Both the position numbers and the translations under genes were made by a program. From Clostridia bacterium (GTDB lineage Bacteria > Bacillota > Clostridia > Oscillospirales > CAG-272), in the NCBI GenBank assembly GCA_017443595.1, contig JAFSYU010000020.1, forward strand, positions 1 to 64,000: a stretch of 64,000 nucleotides of DNA. Direction: 5' to 3'. This document shows positions 1-9,003 of this stretch, piece after piece; within the stretch, counting starts at the first letter, position 1; each line of letters begins with the position of its first letter. The notes beneath the pieces were generated by a model. That model was not told where the DNA came from. It ran no database searches and was given only the letters and a program-made list of their open reading frames with translations.

Positions 1-476
1 ACAACATTGAAGTCGGAACGGCGAAAGGCTTGCAGCAGATACACGGATACATTTTTGGCGGGCTATATGATTTTGCCGGGCAGATACGTGAATTCAACAT
101 TGCAAAAGGAGGCTTCGTCTTTACACCCGCGCTGTGTTTGAGCGGAGCTCTTGCAAATATCGAAAAAATGCCTGAAACCACGCTTGAAGAAATTGTCAGG
201 AAATACGTTGATATGAATGTCGCACATCCGTTTATGGAAGGCAACGGCAGAAGCACGCGAATGTGGCTTGATATGATTCTGAAAAAGAATCTGAAAAAAT
301 GCGTTGACTGGAGCTTAATTGACAAAAAAGATTATCTCGCCGCCATGCGCATAAGCGTTGTCGATACACAAAAGATATATTCGTTAATAAAGAATGCCTT
401 GACCGACGATATCAACAACCGCGAGATCATCATGAAAGGCATTGATTATTCTTATTACTACGAGACCGAGGAATAA
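1..476 (+). CDS. Fic/Doc family protein, 5'-partial. The frame is open to the window start and the listed TTG start is probably internal.
   Basis: Motif [12 protein letters not shown] matches the Fic active-site motif HPFx(D/E)GNGRxxR. The reading frame continues upstream of position 30 with no stop. Confidence 0.7.
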
Positions 477-696
477 TAATGCTAAAAAAGTAAAGGATGA
501 GAACAACTGATGGGAAATAAAACCAAAAAAGAAGAAGAGTATTTATCACTCAAAAAGGAACAGTTAGATCATATCTGAGAAGATCATTCTCACGGCAAAT
601 AACGTCTTGACGCAATCCGGAATTACTTATCTTCCATTTTATATGGCTTTTATGCTGTAGCAAATAAAATCTCATCACTAAATAATAGGTAATATT

Positions 697-1950
697 ATGG
701 CATACAACGAATTGATAAAAAACTTCAATCGAATCCGCGATTATATGCGAGAGTTCTATATATACGGTTTCAAACGCCGTGATGAATACACAAAGAAAAG
801 TTCCCGTTCATATGATGACGAGAGACGAAGAATGGAGAGTTTGTTGGGCGATTATATGCGCTTTCGTCAAACAGCCGACGGTAAAAATGTTTTTATTTCG
901 ATAGACAGCCGTGTTTCCAACCATAACCCTTTATACAAAGCCTGGAAAGCCAAAAGCTTCACTGACGGAGACATAACACTCCACTTTGTTCTTCTGGACA
1001 TTCTTTCAACTGAAAAAAACGGCATAACACTTTCAGATATAGTTGACAAACTGTATGAAATGCTTCCCGAATCCTCAAGACAGTTTGATGAATCAACGGT
1101 TAGAAAAAAGTTAAAGGAATATACTTCCGAAGGCATAGTCAAAACAAAAAAGGAAGGAAAAACAGTTAAATACCTCCCTGAAGAGATAGCAGATGTCTCC
1201 GGTTTTTCCGACGTGCTCGATTTCTTTTCTGAAACAGCTCCGTGCGGGGTAATCGGCTCATTTCTACTTGATAAAGTGCATTCTCATAATGACCGCTTCG
1301 CGTTTAAACATCATTATATTACCGGCGCTCTTGACAGTGATATTGCCTGTTTATTGTTTGATTCAATGAAAGATAAATGCAACATCACGCTAGAAACTAT
1401 CAACCGGCACAGGGACAGGATTGCGGAAAATCACGTTATTCCTCTGCGGATCATGATCAGTGTGCAGAGCGGAAGGCAGTACCTGATGGCATATGTTCCG
1501 CGTTACAGAAGAATTACTTCATTCAGATTGGACAATATATTGTCGGTTAAAAAGGACGAGAAAACTGAAAAATTCGATTATTTCAGAGAACAGCTTGACA
1601 GAATACAGTCGCATATGTGGGGGGTTAGTACACAAAGCCGTGCCGGAAACCGTATGGAACATGTGGATTTCACAGTTACCTACAGCGACAACGAAAAACA
1701 TATTCCTAAAAGGCTTGAGCGTGAAAAACGCTGCGGAACTGTAGAACACCTTGATGATAACACAAGTCGATTCTCCGCGGATGTTTATGACGCTACAGAG
1801 CTTGTTCCATGGATAAGAACATTTATATGCAGAATCAAGGAAATCCATTTTTCTAACGAAATCCTTCAGAAACAGTTCCGCGATGACATGGAAGCAATGT
1901 ACAGATTATACGGTATAGAGGAAGGTGGTGAAAGCAATGCTGTTCAGTGA
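697..1950 (+). CDS. WYL-domain transcriptional regulator (wHTH + WYL + C-terminal extension), PafB/C-like
   Basis: 417 aa. A winged-HTH-like segment (LLDILSTEKNGITLSDIVDKLYEM) is followed by a WYL signature, GRQYLMAYVPRYRRITSFRLDNILSV (YLxAY...R.TSFRLDNI). The 3' end overlaps the next gene, indicating translational coupling. Confidence 0.6.
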   Translation: MAYNELIKNFNRIRDYMREFYIYGFKRRDEYTKKSSRSYDDERRRMESLLGDYMRFRQTADGKNVFISIDSRVSNHNPLYKAWKAKSFTDGDITLHFVLLDILSTEKNGITLSDIVDKLYEMLPESSRQFDESTVRKKLKEYTSEGIVKTKKEGKTVKYLPEEIADVSGFSDVLDFFSETAPCGVIGSFLLDKVHSHNDRFAFKHHYITGALDSDIACLLFDSMKDKCNITLETINRHRDRIAENHVIPLRIMISVQSGRQYLMAYVPRYRRITSFRLDNILSVKKDEKTEKFDYFREQLDRIQSHMWGVSTQSRAGNRMEHVDFTVTYSDNEKHIPKRLEREKRCGTVEHLDDNTSRFSADVYDATELVPWIRTFICRIKEIHFSNEILQKQFRDDMEAMYRLYGIEEGGESNAVQ

Positions 1951-2854
1951 ACTCTACAGTGCTTATTACAACGCCGTCGCTGCGATTCTGAAAGAAGCCG
2001 TAGCATCGCCGGTTTCAGCCGCCCAGATCACAATGATTGCCAAAAAATATGCATTCAGCGAGAGTTTCTTAACAATAACCGAATCTCTGAAAAACGGAGA
2101 CTGGCCTCTTCTTAACGACGACAATACCGGTGTTGTTCGGAACAGTCCTGAAATGCCCCTTACACTTCTTCAGAAAAGATGGCTGAAAGCAATCTCAAAT
2201 GATCCGAGAATACGTCTGTTCAACGTTGAAATGCCCGAATTTACGGATGTTGAGCCACTTTTCGGGTCGGATGATTTCTGCGTTTTCGACAAATACTCCG
2301 ATGGTGACAATTATGAAGATGAGCAGTACATAACACATTTCAGGATTATCCTTGATGCGATTAAAAACAAATATCCCCTGCAATTCTTTATAATGAACAG
2401 AAATGACAGATTCAGCAGACTGACAGCGCAACCTGAGTATATCGAATATTCAGAGAAGGATGATAAGTTCAGAGTCGGCATATCCGGTTTCAGATACGGA
2501 GATACAGTTAATATCGGCCGGATCCTGTCCTGTAAACGCGTAAAAAACTCTTTCCCATCAAGGACGGCCAATGGGATCAGAACAATGGGAAAAGTTGTGC
2601 TGGAAGTTACGGATGACAGAAATGCCCTGGAGAGAGTTCTGCTTCACTTCGCGCATTTTGCCAAAGAAGCGGAGAGAATTGATGAGAATCATTACCGGAT
2701 AACAATCGAATATGACCGAGATGACGAAGTTGAAATGGTTATAAGAATCCTTTCGTTCGGTCCAATGATCAAGGTTTCAGAGCCGTTTTATTTCCGGGAT
2801 CTCATAAAAAACCGTTTGTTAGATCAAAAAAACCTCATAAAAAGCTGCGAGTGA
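1925..2854 (+). CDS. Second WYL/WCX-like domain protein, the likely heterodimer partner of the upstream regulator
   Basis: 309 aa and overlaps the upstream gene. A WYL-like segment (PEYIEYSEKDDKFRVGISGFRYGDTVNIGRI) and a WCX-like tail (YRITIEYDRDDEVEMVIRILSFGPMIKVSEP) are present. The match is weaker than for the first gene. Confidence 0.4.
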   Translation: MVKAMLFSELYSAYYNAVAAILKEAVASPVSAAQITMIAKKYAFSESFLTITESLKNGDWPLLNDDNTGVVRNSPEMPLTLLQKRWLKAISNDPRIRLFNVEMPEFTDVEPLFGSDDFCVFDKYSDGDNYEDEQYITHFRIILDAIKNKYPLQFFIMNRNDRFSRLTAQPEYIEYSEKDDKFRVGISGFRYGDTVNIGRILSCKRVKNSFPSRTANGIRTMGKVVLEVTDDRNALERVLLHFAHFAKEAERIDENHYRITIEYDRDDEVEMVIRILSFGPMIKVSEPFYFRDLIKNRLLDQKNLIKSCE

Positions 2855-2876
2855 AAGACCTCGCAACTTTTTTTCC
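2845..2876 (+). terminator. Rho-independent terminator after the WYL pair
   Basis: GCGAG-tgaaagacc-CTCGC hairpin followed by aacTTTTTTT. Confidence 0.6.
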
Positions 2877-2898
2877 GTGAAAACGCTTAAAAACCGGG

Positions 2899-2904
2899 CT
2901 ATAA
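2899..2904 (+). promoter_or_regulatory. TATAAT -10 element in front of the non-coding region
   Basis: gggcTATAATaatatcgc. No convincing -35 element was found, so this is a weak call. Confidence 0.3.
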
Positions 2905-2911
2905 TAATATC

Positions 2912-3065
2912 GCAAGGTTGAAAACGGGTGTGTCAAATCACCGCTTTGCCCGAGGATATTCCAAAGGGTATGATGGTTCTCTCCGCTTGCGAGTTGGCAG
3001 TCACTTCACAGTGATGGGGTTCAAATCCCCGTATACGCAGGTTCGAATCCTGCCGTGCGTTGAAA
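2912..3065 (+). ncRNA. Candidate structured or tRNA-like ncRNA, or a long 5' leader, carrying two tandem tRNA T-arm-like hairpins
   Basis: TGGGG-TTCAAAT-CCCCG (3015-3031) and GCAGG-TTCGAAT-CCTGC (3037-3053) both carry the GGTTCGAATCC-type T-loop consensus, and a TCACT-tcac-AGTGA hairpin sits at 3001-3014. No complete cloverleaf can be drawn, and nothing across about 450 bp is credibly coding. Confidence 0.35.
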
Positions 3066-3334
3066 AACGTATCGCCAGTGGTTGGAAATCGCTCCGAAAG
3101 GGGCTCAGTACGCGTTTTGCCGCGAAGAAAAAAGTGTCTGTCGCGTCGGATAACAGCTTTACAGTCGTTTGAAGACAATGGAAAAGCAGCCTTGTCCGAT
3201 CCCGGATACCGTTTATCTGTGACAAAGGCCAGACAAATCTGTTCCGCCTTTGAAATAGAAAGCTTAAGGTTTTGGCCGCCGCCTTTTCATAGACAGGCAC
3301 GACGACATTTATAACCCTATGGAGGTTTGGAAAT

Positions 3335-4441
3335 ATGAAAACTGTAGTCATCAATGAAAAACAAAAAGGTTTCCTTTTTAAAGACGGGAAGTACATTAAA
3401 ACCGTCGGCGCCGGTAAATACAGACTGTTCGGCGGCAGAGACATCGAAGTATCCGAATATGGCAGCATCATAACAAGTGCTTACTGTACACTGGACACTT
3501 TGCTTGAAGACAAGGAATTTGCCGCAATGGTATCTGTTGTCGAAGTCAATGACGAGCAGATTGCTCTCCATTATGTCAATGGCAGATTTGCCTGTGCTCT
3601 TCCCAGGCACGGAAAATACGCTTTCTGGAATGGTAGCGATACGCACTCCTTCCAGATCGTTGATATATCTTCACCGGAAGTCGATTCAATTGTCCCGAGG
3701 TACATTTTTGACAAAATCCAGCCCACTCTGTTTACCAGAATTGAGGTTGCCGAATACCAGAAAGCTCGCCTGTATTACGACAATAGGTTCGTCCGTATTC
3801 TTGAACCCGGGACGTACTTTTTCTGGAATACAAGCGTAAAAGTCAATGTAGGGTTTGTCGATACCCGGCTTACAAAAATGGATATAACCGGTCAGGAGAT
3901 AATGACGCTCGACAAAGTTTCTCTGAGAATCAATTTCGTCTGCAACTACAAAGTTACCGATTATGTCAGAATACTGACTGAAATCGATGACTATGTTGAG
4001 CAGATGCACATCGCCGCTCAACTTGCTCTCCGGGATTACGTCGGCAAGTATAAACTTGACGAAATACTTGAGAACAAAGATGAGATGTCCAAGTATGTTT
4101 TCCAGAAACTGAAAGAAAAAGAAGCGGAGCTCTTCGTCGAAATAAAAGATGCTGGCGTCAAGGACATTATACTTCCCGGCGAGATCCGCGACATTATGAA
4201 TACCGTACTTGTGGCTGAAAAGAAAGCTCAAGCGAACGTTATCACCCGCCGCGAGGAAGTGGCCTCCACAAGATCCCTTCTGAATACAGCCAAACTCATG
4301 GAGGAAAACCAGACTCTCTACAAGCTGAAAGAACTTGAGTATGTCGAGAGGATCTGCGAAAACGTCGGAAATATCAATGTTAACGGAAATAGCGACATGC
4401 TTTCCCAGCTTCTCGGAATAGTGGGAGACAAGAAAGAATAA
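3335..4441 (+). CDS. SPFH/band-7 (slipin/stomatin-like) domain protein
   Basis: 368 aa. The C-terminal half resembles HflK/C- or stomatin-type SPFH domains followed by a coiled-coil (…LALRDYVGKYKLDEILENKDEMS…LVAEKKAQANVITRREEVAS…). Confidence 0.6.
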   Translation: MKTVVINEKQKGFLFKDGKYIKTVGAGKYRLFGGRDIEVSEYGSIITSAYCTLDTLLEDKEFAAMVSVVEVNDEQIALHYVNGRFACALPRHGKYAFWNGSDTHSFQIVDISSPEVDSIVPRYIFDKIQPTLFTRIEVAEYQKARLYYDNRFVRILEPGTYFFWNTSVKVNVGFVDTRLTKMDITGQEIMTLDKVSLRINFVCNYKVTDYVRILTEIDDYVEQMHIAAQLALRDYVGKYKLDEILENKDEMSKYVFQKLKEKEAELFVEIKDAGVKDIILPGEIRDIMNTVLVAEKKAQANVITRREEVASTRSLLNTAKLMEENQTLYKLKELEYVERICENVGNINVNGNSDMLSQLLGIVGDKKE

Positions 4442-4456
4442 TTAGAGGTAATTACT

Positions 4457-5704
4457 ATGTTTGAAATAAAAGGAACCGTTAATACAGCGATTTGCTATGC
4501 AAAAGTTGTTGAGGACGAGGCCATTGAGCAGATCCGTCGCATGTGCAGCTACGCGCTTACCGAAGAGAGCAAGGTCAGAATCATGCCTGACGTCCATTCG
4601 GGGAAAGGCTGTACTATCGGTACAACAATGACAGTGGTGGACAAAGCCTGTCCCAATGTCGTCGGCGTTGATATCGGTTGCGGAATGTATACTGTCAAAC
4701 TCGAGGATAAAACACTCGATTTTGAAAAAATCGATGAAGCATGTCACTTTATCCCTTCGGGAATGAATGTCTGGGAGGGCCGTATCGAAAGATTTGATTT
4801 AACCGGACTTCGCTGCTACCGGTCTTTAAAAGACTCCCGGCGTCTTGAACGTTCTCTTGGAACCCTTGGCGGAGGAAACCATTTCATCGAGGTCGACAGA
4901 GCATCCGACGGGACCTTTTACCTTGTTATTCACTCCGGCAGCCGCAACCTCGGCAAACAGGTAGCGGAGATCTATCAGCAGCTCGCGATTGATCTACATG
5001 CAGGTAAAGAAGATTATTTCAGACGCAGAGACGAAATCATAGAATCATACAAAGCTGAAGGAAGACGCACAGAGATACAAGCCGCGCTTAAATCTCTCGC
5101 TAAAGAATATGATGCAAAAGAATCTGATGTGCCTGAAGATATTTGCTGGCTTTACGGCTCTTTTCTCGGGGACTATCTCCACGATGTTGAAATCTGTCAG
5201 CAGTTCGCAAAAAGAAGTCGTGAAAAGATGGCGGAGATAATTCTTGAGAGAACGGGAATGACCGCGAAAGAATCGTTCCATACGATTCACAACTACATTG
5301 ATACCGATGAAATGATTCTTCGTAAAGGAGCTATCGCCGCGCATGCAGGAGAAAAAGTGCTTATTCCCATTAATATGCGCGATGGATCTGTAATCGCAAT
5401 CGGAAGAGGAAATCCTGATTGGAACTTCTCTGCTCCTCACGGTGCAGGCAGGCTTATGTCCAGGACCAAGGCGAAAGAAACTCTTGATCTTGAATCCTAT
5501 AAGGAAGCTATGGCGGGCATTTACACCACTTCAGTAAACGAACAGACAATAGACGAAGCACCCATGACCTACAAGTCTCTTGAAGACATTATTGACGTTA
5601 TCCGCGATTCTGTTGATATAGTCGACATTATGAAACCCGTTTACAACTTCAAGGCTTCAGATGACGATCTTCCTTGGAAGAAAAAGACTATTGCGGCTTC
5701 TTAA
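4457..5704 (+). CDS. rtcB: RNA-splicing ligase RtcB (3'-phosphate/5'-OH RNA ligase)
   Basis: 415 aa with the motifs MPDVHSGKGCTIGTT and GGGNHFIE, which are characteristic of RtcB. Confidence 0.85.
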   Translation: MFEIKGTVNTAICYAKVVEDEAIEQIRRMCSYALTEESKVRIMPDVHSGKGCTIGTTMTVVDKACPNVVGVDIGCGMYTVKLEDKTLDFEKIDEACHFIPSGMNVWEGRIERFDLTGLRCYRSLKDSRRLERSLGTLGGGNHFIEVDRASDGTFYLVIHSGSRNLGKQVAEIYQQLAIDLHAGKEDYFRRRDEIIESYKAEGRRTEIQAALKSLAKEYDAKESDVPEDICWLYGSFLGDYLHDVEICQQFAKRSREKMAEIILERTGMTAKESFHTIHNYIDTDEMILRKGAIAAHAGEKVLIPINMRDGSVIAIGRGNPDWNFSAPHGAGRLMSRTKAKETLDLESYKEAMAGIYTTSVNEQTIDEAPMTYKSLEDIIDVIRDSVDIVDIMKPVYNFKASDDDLPWKKKTIAAS

Positions 5705-5775
5705 TCAATCAAATATCTCTCAATGAATCACGATTGTATTCGAATTTTCTTTGCCTGATACGTTATACTGCGTAA

Positions 5776-5819
5776 AACAAAAAAACGTCCTCCGCTCTGT
5801 GGGCGGAGGAATTTTTTTC
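5776..5819. terminator. Bidirectional rho-independent terminator between rtcB and carB
   Basis: An A-run, then CCTCCGC-tctgtgg-GCGGAGG, then a T-run. Confidence 0.7.
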
Positions 5820-8800
5820 AGTTTATCGTAGATATCCCTATGTTCGCTTCTTCAAGCACGTCGAGGAGCATTCGCACGGTATCAAGTGAGGTCAGCGTAG
5901 CCACGCCGTTCTGCGCGGCGGCGCGGCGTATCTCAACGCCGTCTCCGTAATGTACGCCGGATAAGATCGCGCGCGTGTTTATTACGTAGCTTACGTAACC
6001 GGCGCGTATGGAACGCACCACCTCGTCGCTGCCCTCGCTCGGTTTGCCGAGCGTTCTTGTGCGTATGCCGTTCTCACGCAGCACGTGCGCGGTAAGCGAC
6101 GTTGCCTCTATATTGAATCCCATGTTGTAGAATCTTCTGATAAGCGGCACGGTCTCGTCCTTGTCCTCGTCCGCGACGCTTACAAGCACCGTTCCGTAGT
6201 TTTTCAGCTTCATTCCGGACGCTGTGAGCGCCTTATACGCCGCTCTGTGAAGTTTTTTGTCATAGCCTATCGCTTCTCCGGTGGACTTCATTTCCGGTGA
6301 CAGATAAGAATCCATGCCGTACAGCTTTGAGAACGAAAACGCGGGAACTTTTACGTAACAGCGTTCCTTTTCTTTCGGATATATCTCAAATATCCCCTGT
6401 TCTTTAAGCGAAATACCGAGCATAACGCGCGTACCTATATCCGCTAAGCTGAATCCCGTGGCTTTTGACAAAAACGGAACGGTACGCGACGAGCGCGGGT
6501 TGACCTCTATAATATAAACGTTGTCGTCCTTATCCACGATGAACTGAATGTTGAAAAGCCCGACTATCCCTATGCCTAACCCTAATTTTTTCGTATATTT
6601 CAGTATCAGCGCCTTGACTTTATCGGACAAGGAATACGGCGGATATACGCTTACGGAGTCGCCGGAGTGGACGCCCGTGCGTTCCACAAGCTCCATTATG
6701 CCGGGGATGAAAACGTCGCGTCCGTCGCATACGGCGTCCACCTCAACCTCTTTGCCTTTGATGTATTTATCAATAAGCACGGGCTTGTCAACGTCTATTT
6801 CAACGGCGGTCTTCAAATAATTTCTCATATCGCGCTCTTTTGCGACTATCTGCATAGCGCGCCCGCCCAAAACGAACGAGGGGCGCACGAGAACGGGATA
6901 ACCTATTTCAGCCGCCGTTTTAACGCCTTCTTCAATATCCGTCACGGCTTTGCCGCGCGGTTGGGGGATGTCAAGCGAGACGAGCAGATTTTCAAACAGG
7001 TCTCTGTTCTCCGCTCTGTCTATCGCCCCGCAGTCCGTGCCTATTATTTTTACTCCGCGTTCGTTTAACGGATCGGCAAGGTTTATTGCGGTCTGGCCGC
7101 CGAGCGTGACTATGACGCCCTCCGGTTTTTCAAGCTCTATGACGTTCATAACGTCCTCTGTGCAGAGCGGCTCGAAATAGAGTTTATCGGAGCAGGTGTA
7201 ATCCGTTGAAACGGTCTCCGGGTTGTTGTTTATTATTATAGCCTCGTATCCCGCCGCTTTTATGGTCTGAACGGCGTGGACTGTGGAATAATCAAATTCC
7301 ACGCCCTGACCGATACGTATGGGCCCCGATCCGAGCACGATCATTTTCTTTTTATCCGACACGACGGACTCGTTTTCTTCCTCATACGTTGAGTAAAAAT
7401 ACGGGATGTAGCTGTCAAACTCCGCGGCGCAGGAATCTATCATTTTAAATACCGGTTTTATGTTGTTTTTTATGCGAAGATCGTATACTTCTTTTTCGGT
7501 AACACCCCATAAAACCGCTATTTCTTTATCGGAAAATCCCGTTTTTTTGCCGTCGTATAATGCCGACAGATCAAACGGTTTTGCTTTTATTTCCGCTTCT
7601 TTTGTTACTATATTTCTTATTTTCCTTAAAAACAGGCGGTCTATAACCGTAATATCGGCTATCAGATCGACAGTCGCGCCGACGCGGAAAAGCTCGGCTA
7701 TGGCAAATATCCTGTCGTCCTTGCCGTCTTTTATATAATCAAGCAAAGCGTCTTTTGTATAGCCGTCAAATTTCGGTAAATGAAGATGATAAGCGCCGAT
7801 CTCAAGCGAGCGTATGCCTTTGAGCAGACTTTCTTCAACAGTTCTGCCCACGCTCATCGTCTCGCCGGTGGCTTTCATCTGAGTGGATAATCTGTTGTCC
7901 GCGTCCGTGAATTTATCAAACGGGAATCTCGGCAGCTTTGTCACAACGTAGTCAAGCGCCGGCTCAAATGAGGCGGGGGTATTTGCGAGCATTATCTCGT
8001 CAAGCGTCATGCCAACGCCTATTTTTGCGGAAACGCGCGCTATGGGATAGCCGCTCGCTTTGGAAGCGAGAGCCGAACTGCGCGAAACGCGCGGGTTTAC
8101 TTCTATCAAATAATACTGAAACGACTTGGGATCGAGCGCGAACTGAACGTTGCAGCCGCCCTCTATTTTAAGCGCGCGGATAATTTTAAGCGCGCTGTCG
8201 CGCAGCATATGATATTCTTTGTTCGTAAGAGTCTGCGACGGGCATACGACTATGGAATCTCCGGTATGAACGCCGACGGGATCGACGTTTTCCATATTAC
8301 ATACGGTTATTGCCGTGTCGTTTTTGTCGCGTATGACTTCGTATTCTATTTCCTTATAGCCTTTTACGCTTTTTTCGATCAAAACCTGACCGACGGGTGA
8401 AAGCGCAAGTCCGTTTTTTAAAAGCGGCACAAGCTCTTCCTCGTTTTCGGCAAAACCGCCGCCCGTGCCGCCGAGCGTGAACGCCGGGCGCAAAACGACC
8501 GGATAGCCGATCCCGGCCGCTATTTTTTTGCCTTCTTCAATATCTGAGCACGTCTGTGACGGCAGGATGGGCTCGCCTAAGCTCTCGCACAGATTTTTAA
8601 AAAGGTCTCTGTCCTCCGCCTGTTCTATACTGCTGCTCTTCGTGCCTAAAAGCTCAACGCGGCACTCTTCAAGCACGCCTTTTTTCTCAAGCGCGACGGC
8701 TAAATTAAGCCCGGTCTGTCCGCCTATGCCGGGCAGTATGGCGTCCGGTCTTTCATAGCGGATTATTTTTGCCATATATTCAAGCGTAAGAGGCTCCATA

Positions 8801-9003
8801 TAGACTTTATCGGCGATAGACGTATCGGTCATTATGGTAGCGGGGTTGCTGTTGCAGAGGACTACCTCGTAGCCCTCTTCCTTTAACGCAAGGCACGCCT
8901 GCGTGCCCGCGTAGTCAAATTCCGCCGCCTGACCTATGACTATGGGGCCGGAGCCTATGACGAGTATTTTTTTGATGTCTGTCCTTTTAGGCATTTTCCG
9001 CAC
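5818..9003 (-). CDS. carB: Carbamoyl-phosphate synthase large subunit
   Basis: 1061 aa with duplicated ATP-grasp halves and a C-terminal MGS-like domain. The length is typical for CarB. Confidence 0.95.

Follow-up and report, generated by a model that had tools for sequence, protein, structure and literature searches.

A covarying RNA paired with an SPFH gene, downstream of WYL-domain regulators, in a Clostridial rtcB locus

Introduction

The locus described here lies at the start of a 64,000-nt stretch of DNA (positions 1–64,000 of contig JAFSYU010000020.1, assembly GCA_017443595.1, Clostridia bacterium; hereafter the window). It raises the question of what an RtcB RNA ligase is doing in an operon that begins with a gene-free stretch and an SPFH/stomatin-family gene, directly behind two overlapping genes for WYL-domain regulators. 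A sequence-only reading of positions 1–5819 had proposed a candidate RNA-repair or stress module, with a tRNA-like non-coding region in the gene-free stretch and WYL proteins that may substitute for the activator RtcR. Every element named in that reading was found where it had been placed, and several of the roles assigned to them have to be revised. We find that the gene-free stretch is a large structured RNA, that this RNA and the SPFH gene are the constant core of the locus across Clostridia, and that RtcB is optional.

Results

The gene-free stretch is a conserved structured RNA

The module spans positions 697–5704 and consists of two overlapping helix-turn-helix (HTH)-WYL-WCX regulators, the gene-free stretch, a probably soluble SPFH/stomatin protein and RtcB. 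The stretch between the regulators and the SPFH gene is indeed free of genes and measures 480 bp (2855–3334), not the ~450 bp first estimated. From about 2911 to 3300 it is a structured RNA on the + strand, ~390 nt long and with at least 13 helices:

2911–2990, + strand: 5' domain, in which helix P1 (2912–2917 with 2984–2990) closes a junction with hairpins P2 and P3
2924–2930 with 2939–2944, + strand: P2
2946–2956 with 2960–2973, + strand: P3
3000–3015, + strand: lineage-variable hairpin (read from the sequence)
3015–3031, + strand: first T-arm-like hairpin, GGGG UUCAAAU CCCC (read from the sequence)
3037–3053, + strand: conserved T-arm with a 5-bp stem, an invariant G-C closing pair and the loop UUCGAAU
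3055–3072, + strand: P5, unrelated in sequence between loci yet always a hairpin
3075–3085, + strand: P6, a hairpin with a 3–5-bp stem and GG in its loop
3091–3104, + strand: P7, a hairpin
3134–3300, + strand: 3' domain, in which P8 encloses a variable hairpin and the nested helices P10 to P13
3134–3142 with 3292–3300, + strand: P8, the long closing helix
3178–3190 with 3278–3290, + strand: P10
3194–3203 with 3268–3276, + strand: P11
3204–3211, + strand: conserved GGAUACCG
3211–3214 with 3260–3263, + strand: P11b
3223–3235 with 3240–3252, + strand: P13/P12

For comparison, we gathered 80 species-level genome loci through the SPFH protein family, all of them from Clostridia (including Oscillospiraceae, Lachnospiraceae, Christensenellaceae and Ruminococcus), and counted only those whose flanks were long enough. 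Sequence conservation across these loci extends over the whole spacer, and the RNA is present in 71 of 72. A separate covariance model was built for each of three segments, and base pairs were counted on the alignments that the models produced, with a slid control in which each 3' partner was shifted by 1–3 columns before the same count. In the 5' domain (model R3, 59.6 bits in the window and matching 73 loci), 89.1% of cells were paired compared with 32–48% in the slid controls, and cells with changes on both sides numbered 208 compared with 33–47 (n=73). The middle segment (model R2, 3037–3104, 68.1 bits in the window) gave 89.7% compared with 36–47% and 334 double changes compared with 41–73 (n=76); the T-stem was paired in 100% of cells, with C-G/U-A and G-C/A-U exchanges. 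The core of the 3' domain (3170–3306, n=74) gave 90.5% compared with 33–45% and 671 compared with 115–172, and its model, R1, scores 99.2 bits in the window and has exactly one + strand match in each of 74 of 81 sources. Helix P8 differs wholly in sequence between loci, and its 5' strand forms a more stable duplex with its own 3' strand (-15.5 kcal/mol) than with those of other loci (-9.3 kcal/mol; p 1e-22).

Alignments made by a model are biased toward the modeled structure, a bias limited here by the slid controls and by the 3' core, which MAFFT alone, before any model, aligned with 88% pairing and compensatory changes in 29 of 32 pairs. MAFFT-only alignments of the 5' domain and the T-arm region misaligned P1, P5 and P6, and covariance-model alignments were needed there; the E-values of these purpose-built models are rough. 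Only the + strand folds better than its shuffles (z -2.4, compared with -0.2 on the minus strand), and all of the T-loop motifs lie on it. We reject an RNA on the minus strand on that z score and on the lack of any minus-strand match to R1 and R3. R2 has one, unique to locus L002 (5061–5121; L numbers are our locus labels), which consists of an unrelated tRNA/tmRNA 3' end (GGGTTCGAATCCCACCATCTCCGCCA) and a terminator just downstream of RtcB; it has no full ARAGORN tRNA call and may be an integration-site remnant. A single well-flanked locus lacks the RNA by all three models (L071:5305–6001); it keeps WYL1, WYL2, the promoter motif described below, SPFH and RtcB, and may be a natural RNA-loss variant.

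A T-arm is what remains of the likeness to tRNA

Both covariation and the T-arm support the earlier suggestion that the spacer encodes a real, tRNA-related RNA. It is not a small tRNA-like or Y-like RNA but a multi-domain structure in which the T-arm is the sole survivor of the tRNA-like part. The TATAAT element and both of the T-arm-like hairpins that had been pointed out are present, with only the second hairpin conserved across loci: a T-loop hairpin like that at 3015–3031 occurs in a minority of loci, and the others have 0–3 unrelated hairpins there.

No Rfam 15 family (among them Y RNA, ROOL, GOLLD, OLE, raiA and T-box) matches in the window or in 11 sister loci. In the window, Y RNA and tmRNA gave no match and the closest approach was the tRNA model, at 21.8 bits (threshold 29). 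In the window ARAGORN makes no tRNA call, and those it makes in a few sister loci place the anticodon anomalously and disagree on tRNA identity. Together, Rfam and ARAGORN rule out a genuine tRNA or tmRNA gene in the spacer. The acceptor stem that Rfam proposed (2985–2991 with 3054–3060) finds no support either: covariation favors P1 and P5, to which its strands belong, and P5 varies freely in sequence while P1 stays constant. The conserved T-arm at 3037–3053 reads as the remnant of a tRNA-like unit. P6 resembles a D-arm, and an 'elbow' between T-loop and D-loop is plausible.

The RNA shares with ROOL, GOLLD, OLE and raiA a length of several hundred nucleotides, many covarying helices, occurrence in gut and rumen Bacillota and a relationship to tRNAs. 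It differs from them in having a fixed partner gene (SPFH) and a constant position at the head of an operon.

The RNA and the SPFH gene form the constant core

The RNA is followed, within ~20 nt of its end, by the ribosome-binding site of the SPFH gene:

3321–3325, + strand: Shine-Dalgarno sequence GGAGG of the SPFH gene (from sequence)
3335–4441, + strand: SPFH/stomatin-family (slipin) protein, 368 aa (Band_7 E 8e-27)
4457–5704, + strand: RtcB RNA 3'-phosphate/5'-OH ligase, 415 aa (Pfam RtcB E 3e-55)

The SPFH and RtcB genes are 15 nt apart. RtcB also matches the PHROG 'tRNA splicing ligase' family (phrog_1075, E 1.8e-126), and its translation contains PDVHSGKGC, HSGSRNLG, HNY and PHGAGR, which we take to be its metal- and GMP-binding motifs. 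RtcB is not the center of the module. Across the Clostridial loci, RtcB lies downstream in 49 of 62 and is missing from 13, and at least nine loci consist of WYL1-WYL2-RNA-SPFH without any RtcB. Since loci without RtcB keep the RNA and SPFH, these two are the invariant pair and RtcB is optional.

The SPFH protein, which has thousands of homologs at least 70% identical to it, has no hydrophobic segment (the maximum 19-residue Kyte-Doolittle mean is 0.79). In place of the membrane anchor stands an extension of ~135 aa, and these first ~135 residues repeat, as judged from the sequence, the N-terminal beta-hairpin motif of the SPFH domain. Its closest solved relatives are the archaeal PH stomatin and human stomatin, which form 16-mers. 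Because it lacks a hydrophobic anchor and its closest kin are cage-forming 16-mers, the protein is probably a soluble oligomer. The strict pairing of gene and RNA leads us to infer that it binds the RNA.

High-GC relatives carry cloverleaf-like units

We also searched metagenome contigs with the sequence signature of P3 alone, an RNA-anchored test of the pairing. Where at least 1.5 kb of downstream sequence was available, an SPFH homolog followed on the same strand within 1.8 kb in 56 of 64 cases. About half of the P3 matches came from high-GC organisms, with SPFH 32–36% and RtcB ~29% identical to the proteins of the window. In these high-GC loci SPFH follows in 30 of 31 and then RtcB in 17 of 21, with a WYL gene in 1 of 21. 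Their 5' domain is recognizable, with covariation of P1 and P2 in sequences that were not used to build the model. The ~165-nt 3' domain was not found in the high-GC loci by model R1.

After the 5' domain the high-GC loci have one tRNA-like unit, or two that abut, and then SPFH and RtcB. The units score 37–62 bits against the Rfam tRNA model, above threshold, and have odd or inconsistent anticodon loops. Paired units that abut or overlap by 1–2 nt occur at L100:6890–7034, L155:375–520, L159:5248–5395, L107:7428–7570 and others, for which ARAGORN gives two-base or inconsistent anticodons (Leu, Ile, Gln, Thr and others). The Clostridial RNA looks like a remodeled descendant of such an arrangement, one that would have kept the 5' domain and one T-arm and lost the cloverleaves.

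Five high-GC loci (L087, L092, L096, L100 and L085) have a different conserved palindrome, ATTGCCGG...CCGGCAAT or ATTGGCGC...GCGCCAAT, ahead of the RNA 5' domain, ~60–100 nt before the P3 motif. This palindrome may serve as a further operator or form an additional 5' hairpin.

An invariant promoter motif precedes the RNA in Clostridia

The RNA starts 6–7 nt past the -10 hexamer of a predicted sigma-70-type promoter, whose upstream part overlaps a terminator-like element behind the WYL genes:

2840–2882, + strand: inverted repeat AAAAGCTGCGAG / CTCGCAACTTTT, a run of seven T, and CCGTGAAA
2877–2882, + strand: -35-like hexamer GTGAAA, with a 17-nt spacer to TATAAT
2900–2905, + strand: -10 hexamer TATAAT of a sigma-70-type promoter (promoter scan, 10/12 matches)

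The terminator scan places a terminator-like site at 2846–2865, behind the WYL genes, and the hairpin of this terminator and the palindrome next to the -35 are one and the same element. We read the element at 2840–2882 as the predicted intrinsic terminator of the WYL genes and, at the same time, as a candidate operator, UP element and -35 of the RNA promoter. Its motif TCGCAACTTTTTTTCCGTG (2861–2879) occurs once in the 64 kb.

The promoter motif TCGCARCTTTTTTTCCGTG is invariant across loci and, like the WYL pair, confined to those of low GC (Clostridia-like). In its extended form, TCGCA(A/G)CTTTTTTTCC(G/A)TG with the -10 hexamer 20 nt later, it is essentially invariant among loci whose proteins are 45–57% identical. 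The -10 is kept as TAAAAT, TAGAAT or TATACT in related loci, 6–7 nt ahead of helix P1. The inverted repeat ahead of the motif is usually buried in the final codons of WYL2, and where extra DNA separates WYL2 from the RNA, the whole palindrome stays with the RNA. Among the RNA-anchored metagenome loci, the distribution of the motif follows that of the WYL genes: it occurs in 35 of 53 low-GC loci and in 1 of 60 high-GC loci, which lack WYL. Second copies stand ahead of other genes of the module, as described below for sister loci.

The WYL pair resembles PafBC

Directly upstream of this promoter are the two regulator genes:

697–1950, + strand: WYL1, 417 aa, with an extra N-terminal winged-helix-like region followed by a winged HTH (wHTH), WYL and WCX
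1925–2854, + strand: WYL2, ~305 aa, with HTH, WYL and WCX; the likely true start is ATG 1937, and the gene overlaps the end of WYL1

The start of WYL2 was placed by reference to its homologs, which begin MIFSELYSAYYN. As the sequence-only reading had supposed, a WYL pair is linked to this RNA-repair-type module, and it recurs with the module in related genomes: WYL1 and WYL2 lie directly upstream, in the same order and on the same strand, in 44 of 50 loci.

Pfam alone is below threshold for these genes (WYL 21.4 bits against a cutoff of 21.8; WCX E 0.0055). The PADLOC WYL profile matches both (WYL1 E 3.4e-11, WYL2 E 2.3e-5). The homologs of WYL1 carry PF13280, and some homologs of WYL2 carry PF25583 (WCX) and the NCBI name 'WYL domain-containing protein'; thousands of close homologs of the two proteins bear one or the other domain. 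A profile of the WYL1 family matches PafB, PafC and BrxR at residues 217–290 and an ArsR/SmtB wHTH at 114–187. The AlphaFold model of WYL1 (pLDDT, the predicted local distance difference test, 56) has PafBC (9fnd) as its best solved fold (Foldseek E 5.5e-10), followed by DriD, CapW and BrxR, and that of WYL2 (pLDDT 68) has DriD (8tp8, 4e-8) and PafBC (9fnd, 7e-8), then BrxR and CapW; the matches of both models range from 5.5e-10 to 1e-7 and are nearly full length. On the strength of the PADLOC profile, the Pfam domains of homologs, the family profile and the predicted folds, WYL1 and WYL2 are HTH-WYL-WCX transcription factors with a confirmed three-domain architecture.

The pair shares this three-domain fold with PafBC of mycobacteria, DriD of Caulobacter, CapW and BrxR, as well as a palindromic site abutting a promoter; like pafB and pafC, its two genes are adjacent and overlapping. 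The differences are a sequence identity of just 9–17%, the extra N-terminal region of WYL1 (~95 residues, highly conserved), and a putative target that is an RNA-SPFH-RtcB operon rather than DNA-repair genes or a defense system. By analogy with the way PafBC, DriD and CapW work, and from the co-occurrence of motif and WYL genes, we infer that the WYL pair binds at the motif. The WYL ligand in PafBC, DriD and CapW, as the titles of their solved structures indicate, is single-stranded DNA, which switches DNA binding or activation; sensing of RNA fragments by the present proteins is therefore pure conjecture.

RtcR, its sigma-54 promoter and Rsr had been reported missing, and they are. No sigma-54-like site (TGGCAC-N5-TTGCW, up to two mismatches) occurs in 1–5819, a tblastn probe with the NtrC sigma-54-interaction domain found no activator in the 64-kb window, and no TROVE or vWA domain was found in the five open reading frames (ORFs) scanned in 1–5819. 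That the WYL proteins may substitute for RtcR stays a conjecture; the high-GC RNA-SPFH-RtcB relatives have neither WYL genes nor a sigma-54 activator in their flanks. An activator of the sigma-54 type does lie directly after SPFH in one locus without RtcB (L076:7473–8882), the only case in 200 loci; it is 49% identical to an NtrC central-domain probe.

Accessory and neighboring genes

Several operons of sister loci contain inserted accessory genes, which encode RlaP, a CCA-adding enzyme, a DUF2828+DUF7788 protein and two small families. At L060:3830–5936 the interval from SPFH to RtcB holds genes for an RlaP nucleotidyltransferase (E 1e-88) and an HD-domain CCA-adding enzyme, and RlaP alone follows SPFH at L049:7123–7887. 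The DUF2828+DUF7788 protein, which carries a vWA-type DTSGSM motif and which we take to be Ro/TROVE/vWA-like, is encoded between WYL2 and the RNA (L065:3116–4759, L073:3900–5393 and L021:570–2171), and in L065 and L073 the gene has its own copy of TCGCARCTTTTTTTCCGTG ahead of it. One of the small families is a conserved protein of ~205–220 aa with no Pfam, PADLOC or PHROG match, encoded between the RNA and SPFH (L025:5366–5983, L001:800–1468, L021:2802–3449 and L051:5351–5989) or after SPFH (L023:7261–7812); it may be an unrecognized component of the module. The other, a gene of ~200 aa that weakly matches DUF2247, is found between SPFH and RtcB (L039:7173–7811, L042:7171–7794 and L062:1191–1733), and just upstream of it in L039 and L042 the promoter motif occurs a second time.

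The genes that flank the module in the window are:

1–476, + strand: 3' part of a Fic-domain gene, truncated at the window edge (Pfam Fic E 6.6e-11)
5788–5810, both strands: bidirectional intrinsic terminator at the operon end, shared with carB (terminator scan of both strands)
5818–9003, - strand: carB, convergent (ORF list), with a carA-like gene also on the minus strand

The Fic reading frame is open as far as base 3 and its motif is present in the translation. The sequence-only reading had included this gene as a flank of the module; it is an unrelated neighbor and was rejected as a member, because a Fic homolog occurs in 0 of the 80 related loci. No RtcA gene lies beside rtcB: the operon stops at 5788–5810 and the next gene is carB.

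Discussion

A candidate ribonucleoprotein for RNA repair

We lean toward reading the locus as the Clostridial form of a module made of an SPFH/Band-7 protein, its cognate non-coding RNA and RtcB, which would carry out damage-induced RNA repair as a ribonucleoprotein. The anatomy of the locus, the structure of the RNA, the co-occurrence of genes and motif and the evolutionary link to tRNA-like units are observed; all binding and functional steps are proposals. WYL1 and WYL2 would form a PafBC-like heterodimer that binds the palindrome and T-tract at about -35 to -70. On binding a nucleic-acid damage signal (single-stranded DNA by analogy, or possibly RNA fragments), the WYL domains would switch the sigma-70-type promoter, by activation or de-repression, and the transcript would yield the structured RNA, SPFH and RtcB. 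The RNA, freed from the transcript or active within it, would assemble with the SPFH oligomer into a Ro/Y-RNA-like or vault-like ribonucleoprotein. A mimic of the tRNA elbow, made of the T-loop and the GG loop of P6, may help the particle hold broken tRNA-like substrates, which RtcB would seal and on which RlaP, a CCA-adding enzyme or a TROVE-like protein might also act elsewhere. A bolder version, which we put forward only tentatively, is that the ~390-nt RNA represents an uncatalogued class of large structured RNAs derived from tandem tRNA-like units and forms, with a soluble stomatin oligomer, a Ro/Y-RNA-like or vault-like core particle that can function without RtcB and, in Clostridia, is induced by a PafBC-like WYL heterodimer in response to a nucleic-acid damage signal.

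Several observations weigh against this picture. About a fifth of loci have no RtcB, so there must be more to the function than repair by ligation. The motif persists in Clostridial loci that have no WYL genes next to it, and its doubling as terminator, UP element and -35 could alone explain its conservation. The structural model of WYL1 is of low confidence. The terminator scan found no convincing terminator between the RNA and SPFH (the sole terminator-like match inside the RNA, at 3193–3208, sits where P11/GGAUACCG is conserved, and its T run is weak), as would also be the case for a pure 5' leader.

Such a leader, a riboswitch-like or protein-binding 5' untranslated region (UTR) of the SPFH-rtcB mRNA with no function in trans, might sense the state of tRNAs or RNA fragments or serve SPFH autoregulation. 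It would fit an RNA that runs from the predicted transcription start to just short of the Shine-Dalgarno sequence and that is always promoter-proximal, even where another gene is inserted ahead of SPFH. We nevertheless consider a leader acting only in cis unlikely. We found no expression platform: in the consensus fold the ribosome-binding site stays unpaired, and no terminator/antiterminator pair is conserved, a difference from riboswitch and T-box leaders, whose Rfam families also gave no match. The length, the number of helices and the tRNA ancestry suit ribonucleoprotein RNAs better, and the high-GC equivalents are cloverleaf tRNA-like units that are expected to be processed out. A second alternative keeps the WYL genes apart from the rest, as neighbors with a regulon of their own (e.g. 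a DNA-damage response), and makes the motif merely a terminator and a strong promoter. Besides the persistence of the motif where WYL genes are not adjacent, the 10/12 match of the promoter to consensus and the terminator-like covariation of the hairpin arms (GCAGC/GCTGC compared with GCAAC/GTTGC) point this way. We give it little credence: in 44 of 50 loci WYL1, WYL2, motif and RNA keep the same order, orientation and spacing, the primary sequence of the stem and T-tract is conserved far beyond what a terminator needs given how far the proteins of the same loci have diverged, the motif is missing where WYL is missing (the high-GC clade), and extra copies stand ahead of other genes of the module.

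The folds closest to the WYL regulators include BrxR and CapW, the PADLOC WYL profile matches, and RtcB is dispensable and of a type close to phage RtcB, all of which would suit a module that is primarily an anti-phage or conflict system, with the WYL proteins acting like BrxR or CapW, an SPFH-RNA effector or sensor, and RtcB for optional self-repair. That reading strikes us as improbable, since neither SPFH, nor RtcB, nor the 205-aa accessory protein matches a PADLOC family, there is no constant nuclease or toxin gene, and the accessory genes are of a repair type (RlaP, CCA-adding enzyme, TROVE-like). No relative of the SPFH protein was found among 2.9 million viral contigs, a result on which we also reject a phage or prophage origin. 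Finally, the T-arm hairpins might have been a functionless decayed tRNA gene or integration-site remnant in an otherwise unconstrained spacer, as the sub-threshold tRNA score and the lack of an ARAGORN call in the window would allow. The conservation of the spacer in all but one of 72 loci, with hundreds of compensatory changes in three separately modeled segments, refutes this, and we assign it practically no probability.

Relation to known systems

A module of this type is already predicted in the literature. According to a later preprint (bioRxiv 10.1101/312249), which describes it as never validated, Burroughs and Aravind (2016) predicted a 'band 7-associated tRNA' beside Band-7 and RtcB genes. 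An SPFH gene within the rtc locus of P. aeruginosa has also been noted. The predicted system has a Band-7/SPFH gene next to RtcB, an adjoining tRNA-related non-coding RNA and, occasionally, Rsr/TROVE-like proteins and RlaP, and it matches the order of 5' domain, tRNA-like units, SPFH and RtcB in the high-GC loci. The RNA of the window differs in its length of ~390 nt, its T-arm without a cloverleaf and its ~165-nt 3' domain, and the locus differs in its attached WYL pair and fixed promoter motif. Our literature search, whose coverage did not extend to Burroughs and Aravind (2016), found no link of WYL to RtcB or to slipin and no further link of slipin to RtcB. As far as checked, what is new is how far the RNA extends, how it is structured and that Rfam does not contain it, a constant core made of the RNA and SPFH rather than RtcB, and, specific to Clostridia, the WYL pair together with an invariant motif at the promoter.

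The operon of Salmonella that comprises Rsr (Ro60), the Y RNAs YrlA/YrlB, RtcB and RtcA under the control of RtcR (Hughes et al., 2020, PMC7790460) offers a second comparison. In each, the rtcB operon includes a non-coding RNA that is tRNA-like in part, next to the gene of an RNA-associated protein that forms rings or cages, and by analogy a response to nucleic-acid damage would be expected here too. The window differs in having no Rsr, RtcA, RtcR, sigma-54 promoter or Rfam Y RNA match; SPFH stands in the place of Ro60, and the WYL regulators stand in that of the CARF-type activator.

The analysis makes a decade-old prediction of an SPFH-RNA-RtcB association testable, by supplying an RNA with boundaries, at least 13 helices and three covariance models, together with a defined promoter motif and a candidate dedicated regulator. 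Cultured carriers include Oscillibacter valericigenes Sjm18-20 (L030; AP012044.1, about 467.7–480.7 kb), Robinsoniella peoriensis (L048) and Hominibacterium faecale. Should the RNA and the soluble stomatin-like protein indeed assemble into a particle, bacteria would have a new ribonucleoprotein to set beside Ro/Y RNA or vaults, and a stomatin-type cage would have its first membrane-independent role. The RNA would also exemplify how tRNA-like units can be remodeled into one that is large and structured. Among Clostridia of the gut and rumen the module is common, and there it may matter for surviving ribotoxins, antibiotics and DNA damage.

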